The notes below the pieces were generated by a model. The model searched no databases. It worked only from the letters and a program-made list of their open reading frames with translations, and was not told the DNA's origin. Positions 1,578 through 41,274 of a DNA stretch of 64,000 nt are shown piece after piece. The stretch is from a virus, in IMG/VR virus record IMGVR_UViG_3300027747_004779, positions 64,001 to 128,000 of that record. One strand, given 5' to 3'. Position 1 is the first letter of the stretch. The number at the start of each line of letters is the position of its first letter. The translations under genes were made by a program, and so were the position numbers.

Positions 1578-3869
1578 TTACGATACAATCTCCTGGAAGT
1601 TTGTACCAGTTCTTGTCGCATAGAAATTACAGAGGATGTATTCTGCTGATCTTACAGGTTTAATATAGATATCTACAACAATTGTATTGTCGTCGATTAC
1701 AGAAGGTGGATTATTGCGCTCATCGCAAATGAGAAGATAATCGTATATCCCTTGCGTATTCTTAGCATTATCAAATATCGGTGTTAAGCTATTTAGAACC
1801 TGTGTTCTTGTAAAGAGTGTATTAGGCTCAAATACGAAATATTTTACGGTATCTCTTGTTGCTGTCTCGAGATTTAAGAACAGACGGCGAACGTTAATAC
1901 GGTCAAACGCACTTGGCTTCTTCTGTAGAGTCTTTTGACCGAAGATTACAAACCCTTCTGATGGAAAGAACGTTACCGGGTTTAAATTAATCTTATAGAG
2001 GTTATCGCGTTGCTTCTGTTTCGGATAAATTGCAATATCAACAAGACCTGTTATCACACCGCGTGTAAAGCCGGCTGGTGCATACCAAGGTTGGAATGAA
2101 GAATCTGTATTTGCCATTGCGCCTGCAGCAAATCCCGAGAAAGGAACCCATACTTGCTGATTTGAAGCAATATCAGCTACTTTGCCGCAGTTTGCAAACG
2201 TACAAGCATAACTAGTATCAATACCGGCAAACTGATTCTTTAACGGCCAGTATACATTATCTGAGAATGTGTTTGTTGGTATATCTAAAACTTTAATATT
2301 CGCACCTTGTACAAATATGTTTGTAAAAGGATCGGCGAGAAAGATATGATCTTTGCGTGTTTGCGCGAGATTTAAAAACGCGTTAGCAACTGCAGCGTAT
2401 TGTGCAGCTGGTGTTGATACGCTTGAAGAATTCTGAATAGAAAGTGCTTCAACAGCTGCGTCATACGGAACTGTATCATCAAAGTAACCATATGTTGCAA
2501 GATTGAATGAATTAATATAGATTGTACCGAGACCAGCTTCACAGGTAATATTAATCGGATAGAGATCTACGTTATTAAGCTTTTCTGCAGCGCGATTAAC
2601 TTTACCTGGAACATTGCCAATAATTTTTGTAGCGAGATCTTGGTTGTCATATACACCAATGGGGAAGAGTGAAGCGGTAGATCCAAGATCAAAAAGAGCG
2701 GATGAAACATCGAACTGCGGTGCACCAACACGAGCAGTGTATTCAGCATCAGATTCGCCAGCGAGTGGGGTTGCAAGCGCTTGTGTTAAGAAACGAACTT
2801 TCTTTGTCGGTACACCGGAAAGATTAAGCCATGTTGTCTTATTCTTGTTTGAAATATTAGGATTAATTATGGTTGTAATATTAAGCGATGGACGGTCAAC
2901 AATTTCCATAAAAAAGCTAATAGCGGGGCCACCGTTTATACTGTTAATTTGCCTATTAGCATCAAATGAAGCTGTATAACCATCTTGTAAGAGGTAATCG
3001 AGAGCGATTGTATCAGGCGAAAAGACCGACTGGCGAAGTTTAAAAACACCGATTGTGGCAGTATCATCAAATTGATTAGATGAAATATCAAATGTAGGTA
3101 TATTTTCAAGTACTTCAGAAACACTTCCCTGTAGCCCTGTTGCATCAGCTGAAAGTGTAAAATTTAATCTTACATCAGGAATTCTTACATAATCAGTTCC
3201 AAAAATTGATGTTGAATTATTGTTGATTGAATAAACACTGTTAACATCATTAAATGGTGTTGCAGGGTTGAGATTTGTATTATCAATAATTCCAATATAT
3301 GTACCTTCGAACTTGCTGTTTATTGTTGATTGTGCTTTGTTAAGAACAATTAAACCAGCAGCGCTTAATGAAGCAACATTATCAAAGGTCGTTGTGCCGT
3401 ATGTATCATCGGCCCAAGTAAATCCATCGCCCTTCAATATTGAAAGATATTCAGTCTGTGAAAGTTGAATGTGTGTCGGTTCACCAAAGAAATATGTACT
3501 ATCGTCACCGGTTAGATCTGTAGTTAGTGCACCATGGCTATAAGCTTGTACAGGATATACTAATGCACTATATTCATTACTTGTATCAACGCCGAGACCT
3601 TCACCATAAGGTAGTCTATAAACTATTACGCTAGCAGAAGATTGTAGAGCTGCTTTGACAGAATGGTAAAAATATCTCTCTGCTCCATTAGTAGGTATAC
3701 CAAAAATTTGTTCAAATTCAGAAAGCGATGTTACTGTGATAGGTTCAGAAGAAGGTCCTTTAGAAGCGAATCCAGGTATAAATACTGTGGTTGCTGGGGT
3801 TCCTGTACCTCTCAAGGATAAATCTACTTCATTAATCTCGACTCCGGGGCTTTGAATTGTACGTGCCAT
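1578..3869 (-). CDS. Tail sheath protein (T4 gp18-like)
   Basis: SPGVEINEVD N-terminus; PWYAPAGFTRG, GQKTLQ, FDRINVRRLF, FVFEPN motifs. Confidence 0.97.
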   Translation of the reverse strand: MARTIQSPGVEINEVDLSLRGTGTPATTVFIPGFASKGPSSEPITVTSLSEFEQIFGIPTNGAERYFYHSVKAALQSSASVIVYRLPYGEGLGVDTSNEYSALVYPVQAYSHGALTTDLTGDDSTYFFGEPTHIQLSQTEYLSILKGDGFTWADDTYGTTTFDNVASLSAAGLIVLNKAQSTINSKFEGTYIGIIDNTNLNPATPFNDVNSVYSINNNSTSIFGTDYVRIPDVRLNFTLSADATGLQGSVSEVLENIPTFDISSNQFDDTATIGVFKLRQSVFSPDTIALDYLLQDGYTASFDANRQINSINGGPAISFFMEIVDRPSLNITTIINPNISNKNKTTWLNLSGVPTKKVRFLTQALATPLAGESDAEYTARVGAPQFDVSSALFDLGSTASLFPIGVYDNQDLATKIIGNVPGKVNRAAEKLNNVDLYPINITCEAGLGTIYINSFNLATYGYFDDTVPYDAAVEALSIQNSSSVSTPAAQYAAVANAFLNLAQTRKDHIFLADPFTNIFVQGANIKVLDIPTNTFSDNVYWPLKNQFAGIDTSYACTFANCGKVADIASNQQVWVPFSGFAAGAMANTDSSFQPWYAPAGFTRGVITGLVDIAIYPKQKQRDNLYKINLNPVTFFPSEGFVIFGQKTLQKKPSAFDRINVRRLFLNLETATRDTVKYFVFEPNTLFTRTQVLNSLTPIFDNAKNTQGIYDYLLICDERNNPPSVIDDNTIVVDIYIKPVRSAEYILCNFYATRTGTNFQEIVS

Positions 3870-3919
3870 ATAAAGTATTTATGTTTTTTCGGATAAAACT
3901 TTTTGGTTTTTTTGTTTTT

Positions 3920-4528
3920 TTATAGTATATCTACATCTTCAACTAATGAGATTACTAATTGTGAATAGGAAAATGTTACAAAAGATTCAACTTCACCGGA
4001 ATCACGGTGATTAAAGTTAACACCGCCAAGGGTTGTAGGAAATGCATTTAAGTACTTAAACTCTACTGTTCTTTTGTCGTATTCATCTAGAGCAAATATA
4101 GAAAGGTTAGCAGCATATACAAAATTAGCGCTATTATTACTACCTGGAGGGGGCACTAAATTGTCGGCATTAAAGATGTTTAGTTTAACGTCGTTTAAAA
4201 TATTTAACCATTTATATATGACCCAGTAATTATTAAATCTGTTGTCAACATCAAAATTTACAGTTATAGGTGGATACGGTTTTCTTGATTGGCTTGAAGC
4301 GGCTAATGTTTGGCCACCGTATCGTACATCTAAATGCGAAACTTCCATATCTGGTACAACAACACCGTAAACAGAGAACTGTAAAGAGTCAGGAATAATA
4401 TTTCTATTAGCGCGATCGAGCTTAGAAAATATTTCTTTAAGACCGTCAGGAAAATTTAATACGAGTAAAAATTTATCTTTACGCGCTTTATTAAAAGGAC
4501 TCTGTAAAAAATTAGTAGGTGTGGCCAT
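3920..4528 (-). CDS. Tail completion / tube terminator (T4 gp3-like)
   Basis: ITVNFDVD..F.NY..IYKWL and NAFPTTLGG motifs; start moved to 4528, 5 nt after TAAATA. Confidence 0.7.
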   Translation of the reverse strand: MATPTNFLQSPFNKARKDKFLLVLNFPDGLKEIFSKLDRANRNIIPDSLQFSVYGVVVPDMEVSHLDVRYGGQTLAASSQSRKPYPPITVNFDVDNRFNNYWVIYKWLNILNDVKLNIFNADNLVPPPGSNNSANFVYAANLSIFALDEYDKRTVEFKYLNAFPTTLGGVNFNHRDSGEVESFVTFSYSQLVISLVEDVDIL

Positions 4529-4539
4529 ATAGTTATTTA

Positions 4540-6246
4540 TTAAAGCCTTGTCCAACCCTGTGACTCTAAATCGGTAATTTCGTTAAAATCATTACTATTA
4601 TCACCTTGCATAACAATGGGAAGAGGCGGTGTACCCATGCCTCCATCTTTTTCGTTACTGTAGATTGACGCAGGGTTTATAAAATATTTTATACCAAAGT
4701 CAAGTGATTTAATTCTTTGTGGCTTTTTATTTGCATCGTATTCTGCTATTTCAAAATACTTCTCAACGAGATCATTTTCTAAAATCATTAATGCCCACAT
4801 TAAGCTCATTACCCGGTCATCCCAATTATCTGCTCCAGGTTTAGCTGCCCAGGTGCCGTTAGGATAACGTACAAATCCTTTTAGCTCATTTAATGTCTTA
4901 AGATCTCTAATTTTTAAAACTTTTAATTCTCCCATCCAGTAGCGCATATTCATAACACCTTTATATTTTGTGTTAGTATGGGCTTGTACGCCAATTTTAT
5001 TAAAATTAACAGGGCCAGCTTTTATCCCGTAAGAAACAATATTTTCATAATTTAAAGTATTTTTAAGTTGGTCAACGACTTGCGCACCGCAATTATTTCT
5101 TTCAATCATAGCAAGAGGCGATCCCCAATGCTGTAATATTTCATGTAACTTGGTTGTAAAGTTGTATGGGCTAATTGTTCTATCGTGATAGATGGCAACT
5201 TGCTTAATTTCTCTTAGATCAGTGATATCTAGTATTTGTACAACGCTAGCAGCCTCACCAACACCTTCACTTATATCAACACCTGCAACATAAATTTTTT
5301 CTTTATTCGGTTCGTCCCACATCAGATATTTGCCTTCATTAAAAACAAATTTTGGTTCTGTGCATTCACCTTTCATCTCTTCAAACAGCTTTTCGTCTAG
5401 CGCACTTTCACCGGTCTGTAGGAAAACATTTCCAAACTCTTGATCAAAAACTTCTCTACTACCTAAAGTACGAATTGTTTTTTCTTTCCACGCTTCATCA
5501 CGACCAGGAAATTCCCACCAATCAACTTTTTCCGCTTTCCAATCATTCTTACCATCAATAGCACCGGAGTAAAGTTCGTGAAAAAGATTTCCTGTACCGT
5601 TTGGCGTTGACGCCACAAATATTTTGGACTTCTTAGAGGATGATATGATGGGGTACACAGAGCTCCAGAATTGCTCCACCAGATGATTGTCAATGAAAGC
5701 CAACTCGTCCAAAATGAGCACATTGCAGCTGTCACCTCGGCCGGCATCACTGCTGGTGGTGGATATGCCAATGCTGCTTCCATTGCCAAGTGACATGGCA
5801 GTTTTGCCATATTCTACTGCTCCTGGTTTGAGGTAGTTGGGCAGCTTCTCATAAGCCATGCGTATTCTCTTGAAAATGTTGATGGCTGTTTGTTCTTTGT
5901 TTGCCACAACCAAAATGCGTTGGTCCTCAAAGAAACATGCAATCCACAATGCATATATGGTCATCAATGTGGTTTTGCCCACTTGTCTTGATGCTAATAG
6001 GCAAACAAATCTACTATCTCTGAGACTTCTTAAAATACGCTTTTGATAACTGTGAAGCTTAATTTTCATCTTACCTTCATCAAGATTAGTAATAAAGAAA
6101 AAGTTCTCTGCAAAGTATAAGACATTCTTTCTCGATTTAGCTATATCCTCTACCCATTCAGGGTGTTCAGAATAATCAAAGACAGCCTCTGAGGTAGGTA
6201 AATTCTCATTCCCTAAATAAAACTTATTTTCTGGTTTTTTAGGCAT
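4540..6246 (-). CDS. terL: Terminase large subunit (T4 gp17-like)
   Basis: Walker A SRQVGKTT, Walker B LILDELAF, STPNG, nuclease GVDISEG and DDRVMS. Confidence 0.97.
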   Translation of the reverse strand: MPKKPENKFYLGNENLPTSEAVFDYSEHPEWVEDIAKSRKNVLYFAENFFFITNLDEGKMKIKLHSYQKRILRSLRDSRFVCLLASRQVGKTTLMTIYALWIACFFEDQRILVVANKEQTAINIFKRIRMAYEKLPNYLKPGAVEYGKTAMSLGNGSSIGISTTSSDAGRGDSCNVLILDELAFIDNHLVEQFWSSVYPIISSSKKSKIFVASTPNGTGNLFHELYSGAIDGKNDWKAEKVDWWEFPGRDEAWKEKTIRTLGSREVFDQEFGNVFLQTGESALDEKLFEEMKGECTEPKFVFNEGKYLMWDEPNKEKIYVAGVDISEGVGEAASVVQILDITDLREIKQVAIYHDRTISPYNFTTKLHEILQHWGSPLAMIERNNCGAQVVDQLKNTLNYENIVSYGIKAGPVNFNKIGVQAHTNTKYKGVMNMRYWMGELKVLKIRDLKTLNELKGFVRYPNGTWAAKPGADNWDDRVMSLMWALMILENDLVEKYFEIAEYDANKKPQRIKSLDFGIKYFINPASIYSNEKDGGMGTPPLPIVMQGDNSNDFNEITDLESQGWTRL

Positions 6247-15891: not shown

Positions 15892-16533
15892 TCAAGCATA
15901 TTTGCTAGAAATCTTTTTAAGGCCGAGGTCTACAAGTCTTAAAGCCTTTTTTGAATTATAAAGCTTTGTTCTATACGTAGATATGTTGTTGTAAAAATCG
16001 TCGCCAATAATAAACCGTATTATTTCAGGATCTCTGCTCTTGAGATTTTTCTCAAATACCTCAAACCCTAAAAGCGTATATATGTTAACTTTATGCTCTT
16101 TTAAATGAACCATAAATGAATATTCATTATTTGTTTTGTGATTAATATAATTTTGAGGGCTTACCTTAGCTTCATTGCAAAAATTTAGTATAAACACTAG
16201 TGATTGTTTAATATTGGATAATTGTTCTTCGCTATCAGGATCCATATTAACAATTTTTTTCTGAAATAGGGTATAGGATTTTGTAGCTTTAAGACTGGCA
16301 TAATAGTCAAGAGGAAAATAAGGCTCGTCAGGGTAGAGACTATAAGGGGCTTTAAAATAGTCCTCAATCTTAATATGAGGGAACTTTTTTAAAAATGTTG
16401 CAATGCGTTTAATTGCAATAAACTGCGCTTCGTCAATTTTTTCAAAATTTTTACGAAGCTTAAAGGGCTTGTTCTTACTCGATCTAGAAACAGCTAAGTA
16501 TGTGTTGTAAATGTGCTTTTCGAATGTCGTCAT
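15892..16533 (-). CDS. Hypothetical protein, possibly gp59-like helicase loader
   Basis: Basic, 213 aa, next to gp32 as gp59 is in T4. Confidence 0.4.
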   Translation of the reverse strand: MTTFEKHIYNTYLAVSRSSKNKPFKLRKNFEKIDEAQFIAIKRIATFLKKFPHIKIEDYFKAPYSLYPDEPYFPLDYYASLKATKSYTLFQKKIVNMDPDSEEQLSNIKQSLVFILNFCNEAKVSPQNYINHKTNNEYSFMVHLKEHKVNIYTLLGFEVFEKNLKSRDPEIIRFIIGDDFYNNISTYRTKLYNSKKALRLVDLGLKKISSKYA

Positions 16534-16748
16534 TAATTATAGAATTTCCACTTATTACGGGAAAGTTCTTTTTTGACGCGACGCATCTTACTTGGCTTGT
16601 AGTGACACCTTTTAAGTCTTAAAACGTCTAAAACGCCTGACTTTAAAAATTCTCTGCTAAACTTATTAAGGGCTTTTTCAAAATAAGCTTTATCAAGACT
16701 CTTCTTACCATTTAAAGATACTTCTGCATTAGGGTGTTTTTTACTCAT
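16533..16748 (-). CDS. rpsU: Ribosomal protein bS21 homologue
   Basis: FEKALNKF...SGVL..LR...HYKPS..RR pattern; 71 aa and basic. Confidence 0.85.
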   Translation of the reverse strand: MSKKHPNAEVSLNGKKSLDKAYFEKALNKFSREFLKSGVLDVLRLKRCHYKPSKMRRVKKELSRNKWKFYN

Positions 16749-18426: not shown

Positions 18427-19095
18427 TCAATGTGTGCTATATTCTTTTAGAAATTTCTCTTGGCTAGCATTAAAGTTTTTATCTTCAAAGCTTAATAGCC
18501 CGGGCGAATTATGCATAACCCAGATAGGGGCAACTCCAAGCTTTAGTTTCTTTTTATTTGCATCAATACAGCTAGCAATATCGTAATGATGAAACTTGTA
18601 GTTTTCATTAAACTTCCAGCCGGTCTCTTTGACACTTTTTGTTTTTATAGAAAGAAATAACCCATCTAATATGGCAACGCGTGCGGGTGTCGGTCCAAAA
18701 TTGGTAACCATAATTTGGTCCTTGCTACATGGGTGTGAAACTGCGCCATGTAAATTGTTACTTTGAAATCCTCCGCACATTAAATGCCATAAAGCTGGTG
18801 CTTTAATTGTAGGGTTAACGCCGCCTGCAAGGCCAACAATATCAAATTGAGTATGTGCTTTGATTAATTTTTCACAAACACCGAGATCGTCAACATATAC
18901 GTCATCATGGAGAAAAACAATATAATCAAAATCATTTAAATGTTCTTTTAAAATAGAATTATACATTACGCTCAGGCCTTCTTTGTTGTTAGCGTCATAA
19001 TACACATCGATATCATTCAACCGTGATAATGATTTGTAAGCTAATGTCTCTTCAGCATTATCTCCTTTTGTTGTAAAATAAAAAGCGATCTTCAT
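18427..19095 (-). CDS. GT-A fold glycosyltransferase-like protein
   Basis: YIVFLHDDV, DIVGLAG, LDGLF, FHHYD and HNSPG motifs. Confidence 0.8.
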   Translation of the reverse strand: MKIAFYFTTKGDNAEETLAYKSLSRLNDIDVYYDANNKEGLSVMYNSILKEHLNDFDYIVFLHDDVYVDDLGVCEKLIKAHTQFDIVGLAGGVNPTIKAPALWHLMCGGFQSNNLHGAVSHPCSKDQIMVTNFGPTPARVAILDGLFLSIKTKSVKETGWKFNENYKFHHYDIASCIDANKKKLKLGVAPIWVMHNSPGLLSFEDKNFNASQEKFLKEYSTH

Positions 19096-19775
19096 GGTGT
19101 AAAAAATGGTGAGTTAGGGGTAAATTTACCAACAGAAGTAATGCCTTCTTGTGTTAAAAGATATAATAACCCCTCTTCTAATGCAACATATCCGGGTTCG
19201 GGTAGAGATGAAAACTCATTATTAATAAAGTCAGCATATAGTGTACTACCGGAGCGAGCAATATATATGTTCCCGCTCTTTTGATTGTACATCCAGAGCC
19301 CGAACGTGCCTTTGAGTTGTGAAAGCGTTCGAACAATGCCTGCTACCTCGTCCTTAATACTCTTCTCGTTTATATGCAACAGTACAGGTATTACAGATGA
19401 ATCAACAACGTTAAAAGCTTTCTTATCCGGTATCAAGGCTTTAAGCTGCTTATCGTTAGTTAAGACGCCGTTATGAGCTATTAGCCAATCTTTATACTGA
19501 AATGGATGTGAAGTTGCTGGAGTAAACTTTCGTTGCGATGAAGTAGGGGCTTGCGTATGGCCTAAGTAATAATTAAAGTCATTAATATACTTCTTCTTTT
19601 TACCGTATTCAATAATTAGCTTATTGTTTAATTGTGTAACGCCTGGAGTCTTCAAAATAGCGTGCAATCTCTTGCCAATCAATAAGCCTCCATAAGAAAA
19701 GTTACCTCTTTTCTTGTTATTATTATAAAGCTTTACGTATTTCGTAAACTCTTTAGCTCCAAATATGCCGCAAAT
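19092..19775 (-). CDS. Class II (Ntn) glutamine amidotransferase with inferred ATT start
   Basis: The frame extends upstream of the called TTG to ATT-TGC-GGC-ATA-TTT-GGA (CGIFG); also RG, GHTQAPT, HPF, AHNGVL and VDS motifs. Confidence 0.85.
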   Translation of the reverse strand: MCGIFGAKEFTKYVKLYNNNKKRGNFSYGGLLIGKRLHAILKTPGVTQLNNKLIIEYGKKKKYINDFNYYLGHTQAPTSSQRKFTPATSHPFQYKDWLIAHNGVLTNDKQLKALIPDKKAFNVVDSSVIPVLLHINEKSIKDEVAGIVRTLSQLKGTFGLWMYNQKSGNIYIARSGSTLYADFINNEFSSLPEPGYVALEEGLLYLLTQEGITSVGKFTPNSPFFTP

Positions 19776-19783
19776 AACATTAT

Positions 19784-19822
19784 CCTCCTGATTTATTATA
19801 ATAAAAAGAATAAATAATTCAA
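19784..19822 (-). promoter_or_regulatory. Sigma70-like promoter plus AGGAGG Shine-Dalgarno for the amidotransferase
   Basis: TTGAAT-N16-TATAAT, then AGGAGG 8 nt before the ATT. Confidence 0.7.
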
Positions 19823-19823
19823 G

Positions 19824-20732
19824 ATGAATAAGGATAGTAAACTCATATTCGAGGCATATTTAACAAAGAAACCTGTATTAAGTGAAGCTCCAATATATGG
19901 GCCGGGAGATTTAGACTATACCGGCGATATTGAAAGCGCCCCGGGAGGTGGTTACGGTGTTGGAACAGCTGCGGCAAAAGAGGGTAAAACAAAGACTGAG
20001 ATTGCCAACCGTATTCTTAATGCTGTCAAAACAAAGCTTTTTAAACCTGCAGCACATACAATCGATGGCAAAGAATATCAACTTTATTATCCTGGTAGTA
20101 AAATGAAGTTTAGAACAGAACTAGAAAATTTAATTAAAAACGAACTTAAGATAGGTGGTACAGCAGCCAAGTATACGGCGCGAGTAATTGATAATTTACT
20201 TAACGTTTTACGTGTAGATGTTGAAGGTGGTGCAGCTGCGTCGCCCGTACAGGTTAAGAAAGCTATTGACACCGGTGTACAGGGTAAGCCGGTATCTGGT
20301 GAGGGATCAACACAACCTGCTGCTCCTCAAGCTGCAGCAAACGTTTTCGTAAAAAATCCTCTTGTTCGTTTTATTAAAGAGTTTATGCCGATTTTTGTTG
20401 AACTACCTGATGAAATTACAACTTCAGGTAAGAAAGACTTTTACGAGTCGGATGAACTTCAGAACGAAGTCAAAGAAGCTATTACAAGAGCTTACGACGA
20501 AGCAAAAGCTAAGGATAAAGAGCTTATAAATGATTTCATCGATTCACTCAAACACAAAAACAGTTATATGCCTCAAGCTGAGGCACAAGCTAAAGAAGGT
20601 GAAGGTACCGGTGAAACCCCAACGGTTGATGAATATCCGGAAGATGATGATGTTACCGGTACATTAAGAGATATTGGCGCGTTACCGGGTAAAGTCGGTC
20701 GTGACCCGGGTAGCTTTAGCTACGGCGATTAA
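19824..20732 (+). CDS. Hypothetical late protein with capsid-targeting-like leader
   Basis: TAAATA 7 nt upstream; starts MNKDSKLIFEAY; lies antisense between queC and the amidotransferase. Confidence 0.75.
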   Translation: MNKDSKLIFEAYLTKKPVLSEAPIYGPGDLDYTGDIESAPGGGYGVGTAAAKEGKTKTEIANRILNAVKTKLFKPAAHTIDGKEYQLYYPGSKMKFRTELENLIKNELKIGGTAAKYTARVIDNLLNVLRVDVEGGAAASPVQVKKAIDTGVQGKPVSGEGSTQPAAPQAAANVFVKNPLVRFIKEFMPIFVELPDEITTSGKKDFYESDELQNEVKEAITRAYDEAKAKDKELINDFIDSLKHKNSYMPQAEAQAKEGEGTGETPTVDEYPEDDDVTGTLRDIGALPGKVGRDPGSFSYGD

Positions 20733-21465
20733 TTGTTTTACAATTATACTTTTTCCAGGGTATCGTTATTTTATAAGAAATAGGGTCTATATACCCCGCA
20801 TCTATAAAGCCTTTTATTCTCAAAGAGCACGCAGTACATTCACCGCAAGCCTGTTCTTCACCCTCATAACAAGTCCAAGTCTGGCTAAAATCCACTCCAA
20901 GCTTTATACCCAGTTTAATGATTTCTTCTTTGGATTTATCAATTAACGGTGCTTGAACAGTAATTCTATTTCTGCGGTTCAAAGCTGATACATTATTAAT
21001 TTGCTCCAAAAATTCTTCGCTACCATCCCAGAACCCTGCAACACTGTCAGCCTGTGCAGCACCATGAAAAACAGTGCTGGCCCCATAGTTTTCTGCTATT
21101 GCAAGTGAAATGCTAAGCAGCATTAAGTTTCTATAGGGAACATAGTTTACCGTCTGCGGGTCGCCCATTACATCCTTGGCTTTAGCTACTGCAACCTTGT
21201 TGTTAAGAAGTGAAGAAACTTGACATATATCTTTAAAAAACGGTAATTTTATATGTTGACTATCAACTGGCATGTCAACTGATTCAATCTGAAATGACGC
21301 GCAGTTTATTTCTTTATCACGATGCTTCTGCCCGTAGTCATAGTTGACCGTAATTACTTTATCATACTCGCTTGCAGCTAAATGTAACAGTACAGAACTA
21401 TCCATTCCCCCGGAAATAGGGACTACTGCTTTACGCGATAGGTGCTTCTTCGCTTGGCGCTTCAT
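20716..21465 (-). CDS. queC: 7-cyano-7-deazaguanine synthase QueC
   Basis: SGGMDS, YGQKH, YVPYRN, TWTCY...CGECTAC. Confidence 0.93.
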   Translation of the reverse strand: MKRQAKKHLSRKAVVPISGGMDSSVLLHLAASEYDKVITVNYDYGQKHRDKEINCASFQIESVDMPVDSQHIKLPFFKDICQVSSLLNNKVAVAKAKDVMGDPQTVNYVPYRNLMLLSISLAIAENYGASTVFHGAAQADSVAGFWDGSEEFLEQINNVSALNRRNRITVQAPLIDKSKEEIIKLGIKLGVDFSQTWTCYEGEEQACGECTACSLRIKGFIDAGYIDPISYKITIPWKKYNCKTINRRS

Positions 21466-38400: not shown

Positions 38401-39042
38401 TTAATTCTGCGCAAACTCGACAAACTTGTAAAACTCAGCTCGTGAATTATCATTATTATCTAGAAACGCACCAGACATTCTGGCTGTACGCATCGTTGAA
38501 TCATGTCTAATACCACGATTAGAACAGCAGGTATGATTGGCTTCAATCATTACAGCTACCCCATTATTTTTTTCACATACTAGATCAATATGAGCATGAA
38601 TTTGCATGGTAAGGTTTTCCTGTACCTGCGGACGGCGGGCAAACCAATCAACAATACGATTGAGCTTGCTTAAACCAATAACCTTACCTTCCTTAGATGG
38701 TATATAAGCTACATGAGCTACACCAGTAAAAGGTGCATGATGATGTGAGCAAAGCGAAGTCAATTTAATATTATTTTGACAGACCATGCCATCATATTGA
38801 TCGATATTATCAAAGGCTGTAATTTTCGGTGGTTTACTATAACAGCCCCATGCAAAGTCTTCTACAAAGGCCTTAGCCACGCGATGTGGGGTATTATCGC
38901 TGTTAGGATCATTTCTCCAATCATAACCTAATGCATCCATGTATGCTTCATAAGCTTTAGATGCTCTTTCAATTATTTGTTCTCTTTCTTCTTGAGTATG
39001 AGGATGATTATGATTAGCGAAAGCGAGTTTTACTTTAGACAT
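38401..39042 (-). CDS. folE: GTP cyclohydrolase I FolE
   Basis: TPHRVAK, SLCSHH, GLSKLNR, RRPQVQE and H.C...RG motifs. Confidence 0.95.
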   Translation of the reverse strand: MSKVKLAFANHNHPHTQEEREQIIERASKAYEAYMDALGYDWRNDPNSDNTPHRVAKAFVEDFAWGCYSKPPKITAFDNIDQYDGMVCQNNIKLTSLCSHHHAPFTGVAHVAYIPSKEGKVIGLSKLNRIVDWFARRPQVQENLTMQIHAHIDLVCEKNNGVAVMIEANHTCCSNRGIRHDSTMRTARMSGAFLDNNDNSRAEFYKFVEFAQN

Positions 39043-40608: not shown

Positions 40609-41274
40609 ATGAAATACGAGAGTACAAAGATAATTGAATTAGGTAGCTGTGCATTTAGACAATGGAAAGCTGATAGTCATTGCAAATTTATACATGGATA
40701 TAGATTAGTAGCTAAATTTTGGTTTGCATGCAATTATTTAGATGAAAAAAATTGGGTAGTAGATTTTGGTGGGTTAAAAGGTCTTAAGCAAGTTTTGGAG
40801 AAACAGTTTGATCATACATTATGTATTGCAGCAGATGACCCTTTACTTGAAGTGTTTAAACAGCTACATTCAACAGGAGGATGTGATTTGAGAGTTATGT
40901 CTAAAGGTGTTGGAATTGAAAGAACTGCGGAATGGTGTTTTGATGTAGCTGATGGGCATGTAAGAGGTATTACAAATAATAGATGTTGGGTCGAAAAGGT
41001 AGAAGTATGGGAACATGATAAAAATTCTGCTATTGTTTCTTTTAGTACTACGGCTGAAGTTCACCAATCGATTGGTGAGACGGTTGCAACAACAATACAA
41101 GCACCAATAAATCAAGTTAGAGACTTTTTAGAGGATGTAGCAGAAGAGACAGGTGTTAATGTTTCTAATGTACTCAAGAATGCACCTCCAACAGAGTCTC
41201 AGGCTGCGCGTGTAGGCAATAAGATAACAACAGGTTATGCAAACTTATTTGGCGGTACAAGCTGGGGTCAGTAA
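40609..41274 (+). CDS. queD: QueD (6-carboxytetrahydropterin synthase) with C-terminal extension
   Basis: HCKFIHGY, WVVDFG, FDH and VEVWEH motifs. Confidence 0.9.
   Translation: MKYESTKIIELGSCAFRQWKADSHCKFIHGYRLVAKFWFACNYLDEKNWVVDFGGLKGLKQVLEKQFDHTLCIAADDPLLEVFKQLHSTGGCDLRVMSKGVGIERTAEWCFDVADGHVRGITNNRCWVEKVEVWEHDKNSAIVSFSTTAEVHQSIGETVATTIQAPINQVRDFLEDVAEETGVNVSNVLKNAPPTESQAARVGNKITTGYANLFGGTSWGQ

Follow-up and report, generated by a model that had tools for sequence, protein, structure and literature searches.

How does translation begin at a phage gene whose product must expose a cysteine at its N terminus when the codon ahead of that cysteine is ATT, and why would such a start be kept? 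The question is raised by the gene of an amidotransferase in the stretch of DNA analysed here, which we call the window: 64,000 nucleotides, corresponding to bases 64001–128000 of a 157,857-bp, 74%-complete IMG/VR virus record (G000). The replication genes of the window are of the T4-like type, with a UvsX that is only ~34% identical to cyanophage and Methylophilales-phage proteins, and four phage tRNAs are listed in the record. On the minus strand, the genes follow one another in the order UvsX, QueC, amidotransferase (GAT), a glycosyltransferase-like gene (GT2-like), DnaB, a 97-aa ORF, bS21, a 213-aa ORF and gp32, with a divergent late gene on the plus strand between QueC and the amidotransferase (Table 1). 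The synteny UvsX-QueC-...-GAT-GT2-DnaB is kept in every related locus that we examined. An earlier note on this DNA had described the ATT start, together with the strong Shine-Dalgarno sequence (SD) ahead of it, and had read the two as parts of a translational switch.

Table 1. Features of the window that bear on the start of the amidotransferase gene (window positions).
Feature	Position	Strand	Details
ATT initiation codon of the amidotransferase	19773..19775	minus	Cys codon directly after
Shine-Dalgarno AGGAGG	19784..19789	minus	8-nt spacer ATAATGTT to ATT
Predicted sigma-70-type promoter	19795..19822	minus	TTGAAT 19822-19817, 16-nt spacer, TATAAT 19800-19795; 10/12 matches (consensus scan)
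Out-of-frame ATG ORF, MLFAAYLELKSLRNT	19733..19780	minus	15 codons plus stop; ATG 19780-19778, 3 nt after the SD; stop 19735-19733
Out-of-frame TTG opening a 6-codon ORF	19771..19773	minus	overlaps ATT-TGY; read from sequence
Amidotransferase, stand-alone class II (Ntn)	19092..19775	minus	227 codons including ATT; TGA at 19094-19092
Glycosyltransferase-like gene (Glyco_tranf_2_5)	18427..19095	minus	Pfam E 3.4e-12; beside the amidotransferase in all related loci
Divergent late gene, 302 aa	19824..20732	plus	without family match; homologue adjoins the amidotransferase in most relatives
TAAATA	19811..19816	plus	7 nt ahead of the ATG of the divergent late gene
QueC (7-cyano-7-deazaguanine synthase family)	20716..21465	minus	Pfam QueC E 4.5e-56; conserved neighbour upstream
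Ribosomal protein bS21, phage-encoded	16533..16748	minus	PF01165 30.7 bits, above cut-off; phrog_21469; same minus-strand gene run
FolE (GTP cyclohydrolase I)	38422..38961	minus	
QueD (PTPS)	40648..41037	plus	

The start site of the amidotransferase gene

The product of the gene matches Pfam GATase_6 with 35.6 bits (cut-off 27), and the family profile aligns to residues 81–180 of the E. coli GlmS glutaminase domain (1xff), a span that includes HNG and D123. Within the family, the Cys, R23-G24, H101-N102-G103 and D125 are invariant. Based on the GATase_6 match, the GlmS alignment and the invariant Cys, Arg-Gly, His-Asn-Gly and Asp residues, we assign the protein to the class II (Ntn) glutamine amidotransferases; it is encoded by 227 codons in one intact frame and has no synthase domain. 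Class II amidotransferases need Cys as their first mature residue, and in the window the Cys codon stands directly after the sole possible start, just as homologues of the ATG type begin Met-Cys. In the ATT set, purifying selection acts on the first 31 codons: Arg23 is spelled by six different codons, Gly24 by four and Leu31 by five, with the residue always the same. A tblastn search with the protein (query P0001) returned no relatives from cultured phages at an E-value of 1e-5.

Read from its 5' end, the minus strand runs TTGAAT, 16 nt, TATAAT, AAATC, AGGAGG, ATAATGTT, ATT and then TGC GGC ATA TTT GGA, which encodes C-G-I-F-G. The description in the earlier note is accurate here in all its coordinates: the ATT directly precedes CGIFG, the AGGAGG stands 8 nt before it, and no in-frame ATG, GTG or TTG occurs in the 28 codons back to the upstream stop. 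The placing of the transcript 5' end at the SD comes from promoter prediction, by which transcription would start at ~19789/19788, on the SD itself. The promoter is conserved in relatives, but its −35 element overlaps the promoter and 5' end of the divergent late gene, which offers an alternative cause of that conservation. The out-of-frame ATG that the note had seen 3 nt past the SD does open a 15-codon ORF. A second out-of-frame ORF, opened by a TTG, is an unavoidable by-product of an ATT followed by a Cys codon.

The SD is also as solitary as had been claimed. AGGAG or GGAGG is found at −22 to −4 in 0 of the 138 crude genes of the 157.9-kb record, and the only AGGAGG in the window ahead of the start of a long ORF is that of the amidotransferase. 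The prediction that gene callers would truncate the gene is borne out by its closest protein clusters, which start at internal codons (174–216 aa) except for one that is over-extended; more distant clusters begin with MC. Because gene callers disallow ATT, the predicted proteins of an entire clade of phage amidotransferases lack the catalytic Cys, with ~50 of the closest protein clusters truncated. The coupling of the amidotransferase to the downstream glycosyltransferase-like gene likewise stands, as the stop of the one and the start of the other overlap as ATGA (junction CC-ATGA-AG).

Two start architectures among relatives

The relatives of the window are uncultured freshwater T4-like phages, and their loci were drawn from the best 80 of 343 IMG/VR relatives. 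In all 19 close relatives (70–98% protein identity), an ATT-TGY is preceded at 7–9 nt by an AGGAGG-like SD. The alignment across related phages that the earlier note had proposed as a check thus shows the SD and the ATT-TGY kept throughout, and the ATG in close relatives that would have pointed to a sequencing error or a private mutation is found in none of them. A first wider set with a family alignment held 36 distinct ATT and 31 ATG sequences; codon 1 was ATT in 36 of the 36 ATT-type sequences, never ATA or ATC. The set later grew to a total of 75 distinct start regions, among which an ATT with an SD 7–10 nt upstream accounts for 44 and an ATG without an SD for 29. The remaining 2 have an ATG with a badly spaced SD-like run 11–13 nt away, and an ATT without an SD does not occur (0 of 75). 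In the ATG-type loci, the TATAAT ends 6–12 nt before the ATG, and the message is predicted to be leaderless or nearly so. An AUU behind an SD and an SD-less, leaderless or near-leaderless AUG therefore appear to be two mutually exclusive start architectures for the same amidotransferase gene.

Several lines of comparison indicate that the ATT is itself under constraint. On the protein tree, the T of ATT undergoes 0 changes (38 ATT rows), compared with 3–11 at the third positions of codons 2–9. The tree requires at least 5 changes between ATT and ATG. Among 5 independent pairs, the SD changes in step with the start codon in 3–4 and against it in none, although the small number of events leaves the sign test short of significance (p 0.125–0.25). 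In the window's own clade, which comprises 28 distinct sequences with ~30% protein divergence, there is no ATT-to-ATG change, and the SD and ATT immediately follow the promoter that serves the leaderless start of ATG-type sisters. An IMG/VR-wide scan for the pattern GGAGG-N6-10-ATH-TGY-GSN-ATH-TTY-GG found 52 places, 50 of them family members, including relatives at 35–39% identity with the same synteny. All 50 have ATT, and the scan found no ATA or ATC start in the family. The same pattern with ATG, GTG or TTG occurs at 21 places in IMG/VR, of which 0 come from the amidotransferase family. Furthermore, several ATT-type relatives have an in-frame stop 1–6 codons ahead of the ATT, so no other start is possible at such loci. 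At the level of comparative sequence, we regard the ATT as confirmed as the true start of this Ntn amidotransferase.

Other candidates for the start were considered and rejected. An upstream in-frame start or a propeptide is at odds with the lack of any canonical codon upstream and with the in-frame stops in relatives, and an in-frame ATG located 12 codons upstream in two relatives (L096 and L097) is not conserved. A frameshift from the out-of-frame ATG was set aside because that ATG is not conserved either.

The phage as a whole appears to initiate translation in another way. Four-base SD cores occur at background frequency ahead of the 138 crude genes of the record, a TAAATA ends exactly 5–6 nt before the ATG in 32 of 159 genes, and for TATAAT the distance peaks at 6 nt. 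The pattern points to a phage that otherwise uses no SD and whose genes are largely leaderless. Where leaderless initiation has been studied, it needs AUG (PMC9031893), which would explain why the ATT is never found without an SD. The family amounts to a natural experiment, in which one gene alternates between a leaderless AUG and an AUU behind an SD in a phage that otherwise ignores SDs, and it provides comparative evidence on the trade-off between start-codon strength and SD strength.

Some further elements of the record concern initiation. An initiator-like tRNA-Met with a 1-72 mismatch and a GCGGGG/CCCCGC acceptor stem is encoded outside the window (G000:C1:14018-14094). Bacterial initiators typically have three consecutive G-C pairs in the anticodon stem, which this tRNA lacks. 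Leaderless translation is reported to be favoured when initiator tRNA is more abundant (PMC9031893). Also outside the window (G000:C1:157443-157564), a CAT-anticodon tRNA resembling tRNA-Ile2 precedes a 60-codon ORF whose ATG stands 5 nt behind an AGGAGG; this ORF belongs to the very few others in the record with an SD-led start. The bS21 gene, located between DnaB and gp32, has no SD of its own, and its start overlaps the stop of the preceding ORF as ATGA.

A homing endonuclease beside the start in other lineages

In several lineages (L091, L092, L096, L097, L068 and L128), the gene next to the amidotransferase start is not the late gene but a divergent GIY-YIG endonuclease of 234–244 aa, inserted between the two. 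The enzyme matches GIY-YIG, SegE and NUMOD domains and phrog_314 (E ~1e-34). All full-length relatives of the enzyme in IMG/VR and in metagenome contigs, which are 44–100% identical and have at least 5 different leaders, adjoin an amidotransferase of this family, and each of these amidotransferases starts with ATT behind an SD. No endonuclease was found at ATG-type loci. Where the allele is of the endonuclease type, ~30 nt of leader precede the SD, so that it is not 5'-terminal.

The region of the start has a mosaic pattern of identity. At −60 to +30, L096 and L068 show 98% and 93% identity, as against only ~40–65% in the gene body, whereas L096 and its close relative L086, which has ATG and no endonuclease, are 80–90% identical in the body and only 57–67% at the start. 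From this mosaic it follows that the leader and the ATT have moved with the endonuclease. Two loci in which the enzyme is missing are also informative. At L058:3810-4000, the first 19 endonuclease codons are followed by a stop, both cassette ends can be aligned to L096, and the SD and ATT are kept; as judged from this alignment, the locus is a deletion remnant of the endonuclease. L098, by contrast, carries an endonuclease-free ATT allele among endonuclease-bearing sisters, one that seems to have arisen from an ATG-type allele by change in place and not by cassette replacement.

Neither an endonuclease homologue (queries P0122 and P0123) nor a remnant was found in the window's genome or in its clade (28 sequences). 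The resemblance of the window's leader to the cassette leaders is weak and of an AT-rich kind only: they share GGAGG followed by TAA-like bases, with nothing like the L058 remnant. The window's own leader may have come from such a cassette, in a clade that itself has neither enzyme nor recognisable remnant.

The endonuclease-bearing loci have other features of their own. In L096 (3961-3996, plus strand) and also in L201, an upstream ORF of 11–12 codons starts 40 nt upstream and ends with a TAA 4 nt before the ATT, with the SD in its last codons. The placement of this short ORF in L096-type and L201 leaders suggests termination-reinitiation as a possible mode of translation. The conserved first codons of the endonuclease (L096:3223-3957, L128:4911-5615 and L068:2469-3203, all minus), M-Y-Y-Y-I-Y, spell TATAAT on the opposite strand, which might serve the adjoining amidotransferase as a −10 box. 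L128 has a further SegE-like GIY-YIG gene (3102-3767, plus strand) immediately past QueC, and the intergenic zone near QueC and the amidotransferase appears to be a hotspot for GIY-YIG elements.

Explanations for the ATT start

Taken as a whole, the reading that we favour, and to which we give reasonable though far from complete credence, is an SD-dependent AUU start whose output is held low and whose origin is probably linked to the endonuclease. A 30S subunit positioned by the AGGAGG would initiate 8 nt downstream at the AUU, on a short leader whose 5' end is probably the SD, and removal of the initiator Met would expose the catalytic Cys1. An AUU would be unusable on a leaderless message, and the SD would therefore always be needed. 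A strong, well-spaced SD together with an AUG would not be tolerated, so that the AUU would be kept and output would stay at a low level, close to what the leaderless form gives; the glycosyltransferase-like gene, coupled through the ATGA, would follow the output of the amidotransferase. The SD and the start codon would thus act as if they compensated each other to hold output low. We infer selection to hold output down from a single observation, namely that a well-spaced SD never occurs with ATG. As for the origin of the leader, a GIY-YIG cassette invading the divergent promoter region beside the start codon would bring in the SD and the ATT. The endonuclease-free leader of the window would most likely descend from such a cassette event, or be a convergent equivalent of one, and would have been kept by selection.

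Dosage compensation with an endonuclease-linked origin fits these observations better than the purpose-built switch proposed in the earlier note, in which the AUU, the strong SD and the competing upstream ORF would report free IF3 or anti-SD availability to the amidotransferase and the glycosyltransferase. We think it quite improbable that the start was built for this purpose. The idea is not without appeal. AUU is a weak start that is repressed by IF3 in E. coli (PMC5499595), and excess IF3 in E. coli inhibits AUU starts, leaderless AUG starts and SD-less re-initiation (PMC2268962). Some IF3 sensitivity is thus to be expected of both architectures seen here (PMC2268962, PMC5499595), which makes them functionally similar but is not evidence of a designed switch. 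The phage also encodes bS21 and the initiator-like tRNA, and hence touches the initiation machinery; it was the phage bS21 gene that made the anti-SD idea inviting (PMC9976891, PMC9723584). In the window's half of the tree, however, phages of both start types carry bS21 near the amidotransferase, which led us to reject it as a specific partner. The competing upstream ORF does not survive as a designed part, since its ATG at −5 is confined to the window with its 98%-identical relatives (L027) and to L038. An ATG 3 nt from an SD is too close for efficient use, and this ORF is probably incidental. Nor was there any conserved RNA structure in the leader (z-score −0.83, 0 consensus pairs), and genes for IF3 and peptide deformylase were not found in the phage record. 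Moreover, an SD and ATT leader that moves with a selfish endonuclease needs no regulatory purpose. A search for a RegB-type nuclease, which acts on GGAG, gave no match in the phage; it matched no control genome either.

A second alternative takes the mobility of the leader as the whole story. The ATT and SD would be a footprint of the endonuclease that merely alters the GIY-YIG target or was co-converted with it, and the SD would rescue a crippled start, with no meaning for expression. We consider this unlikely, although it accounts for the presence of SD and ATT in all endonuclease-adjacent copies and for the absence of any ATG copy with an endonuclease, as well as for the mosaic identity around the start, the L058 remnant and the L098 allele amid its endonuclease-bearing sisters. 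What it leaves unexplained is that the window's clade keeps the SD and ATT over ~30% protein divergence without an endonuclease, and that the one-base reversion to ATG is absent wherever the SD is well spaced, which calls for selection. In addition, GIY-YIG enzymes tolerate many substitutions in their targets, and a single base is unlikely to confer immunity. There is also a slim chance that the SD at the 5' terminus is a ribosome-binding stabiliser of the early operon mRNA (DnaB, bS21 and gp32), with the weak AUU slowing the departure of the ribosome. A long minus-strand gene run does have the SD at its predicted 5' end, and SD-like 5' mRNA stabilisers are known in Bacillus subtilis, one of them from phage SP82. 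Yet the endonuclease-type alleles have their SD ~30 nt into the leader, and ATG-type relatives run the same operon without an SD. Finally, a sequencing error, a private mutation or a pseudogene, with an ATG as the true start or the gene dead, can be practically dismissed, given that 50 independent assemblies agree on the ATT, that purifying selection acts on the N-terminal codons and that the frame is intact over 227 codons.

A broader proposal, which we put forward only tentatively, is that free-standing homing endonucleases targeting the highly conserved first codons of class II amidotransferases may rewrite the start of their neighbour, turning a leaderless AUG into a portable leader with an SD and an AUU, sometimes with a short upstream ORF that ends 4 nt before the AUU. 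The AUU would persist because its position is among the few that can vary and still spare the essential Cys1, and because it keeps output low. If true, this would explain the recurrence of ATT starts in unrelated phage amidotransferases, in T4-like freshwater phages and phiEco32-like coliphages. The observations suggest that homing endonucleases can bring a replacement ribosome-binding site and a non-AUG start to an adjoining gene, which, if so, would be an under-appreciated route for odd start codons to arise and spread. In a limited literature search, we did not find such a replacement by a cassette described, nor the strict alternation with a leaderless AUG, the absence of SD with ATG or the GIY-YIG cassette that carries a leader.

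An ATT-start phage amidotransferase is not new as such. Gene 83 of phiEco32 (phi32_83, YP_001671828.1) encodes a GlmS-like class II amidotransferase, and its RefSeq CDS begins ATT-TGT-GGC (I-C-G). However, gp83 has 676 aa with a sugar-isomerase part and is unrelated to the window's protein at the BLAST level. The phage also differs in type and host, and its leader has a hairpin, whereas the leader in the window is unstructured. The E. coli genes infC (IF3) and pcnB likewise start with AUU behind an SD, and there the start is weak, is discriminated against by IF3 and limits or regulates output (PMC5499595). Comparative evidence indicates that AUU serves as initiation codon in the amidotransferase gene as well. 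Unlike IF3, the product of the window's gene is not an initiation factor, and there is no autoregulatory logic; in contrast to both E. coli genes, the AUU of the amidotransferase alternates in evolution with a leaderless AUG and in several lineages travels with a homing endonuclease. The ATG-type relatives resemble leaderless mRNAs such as lambda cI, with the ATG 6–12 nt after the TATAAT, and relative to these the window's gene is the exception, with a short leader, an SD and a non-AUG start. The enzyme in the relatives is reminiscent of the free-standing GIY-YIG enzymes of the T4 Seg type in that it is inserted between conserved genes and has flanks with a co-conversion-like mosaic, although the window itself has no such gene, and homing in the relatives is putative.

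The surroundings of the gene offer some hints as to its function. FolE, QueD and QueC indicate 7-deazaguanine synthesis in the phage. Hutinet et al. reportedly described, in 2019, Gat-QueC fusion proteins in phage 7-deazaguanine DNA modification. The likeness lies in a class II amidotransferase conserved near QueC, with FolE and QueD in the same phage. The window's amidotransferase differs in not being fused, as it and QueC are separate genes split by the divergent gene, and no TGT or DpdA match was found in the 74%-complete phage record. We also found no longer, fused Gat-QueC-like relatives, which is weak evidence. As a guess by analogy, the amidotransferase may feed ammonia to 7-deazaguanine synthesis in the style of Gat-QueC; synteny only suggests QueC or the GT2-like protein as its acceptor partner. 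At another related locus (L107:3079-5976), the match to the DnaB homologue is split into segments at 3079-4107 and 5710-5976 with ~1.6 kb between them, which suggests an intein or an inserted gene.
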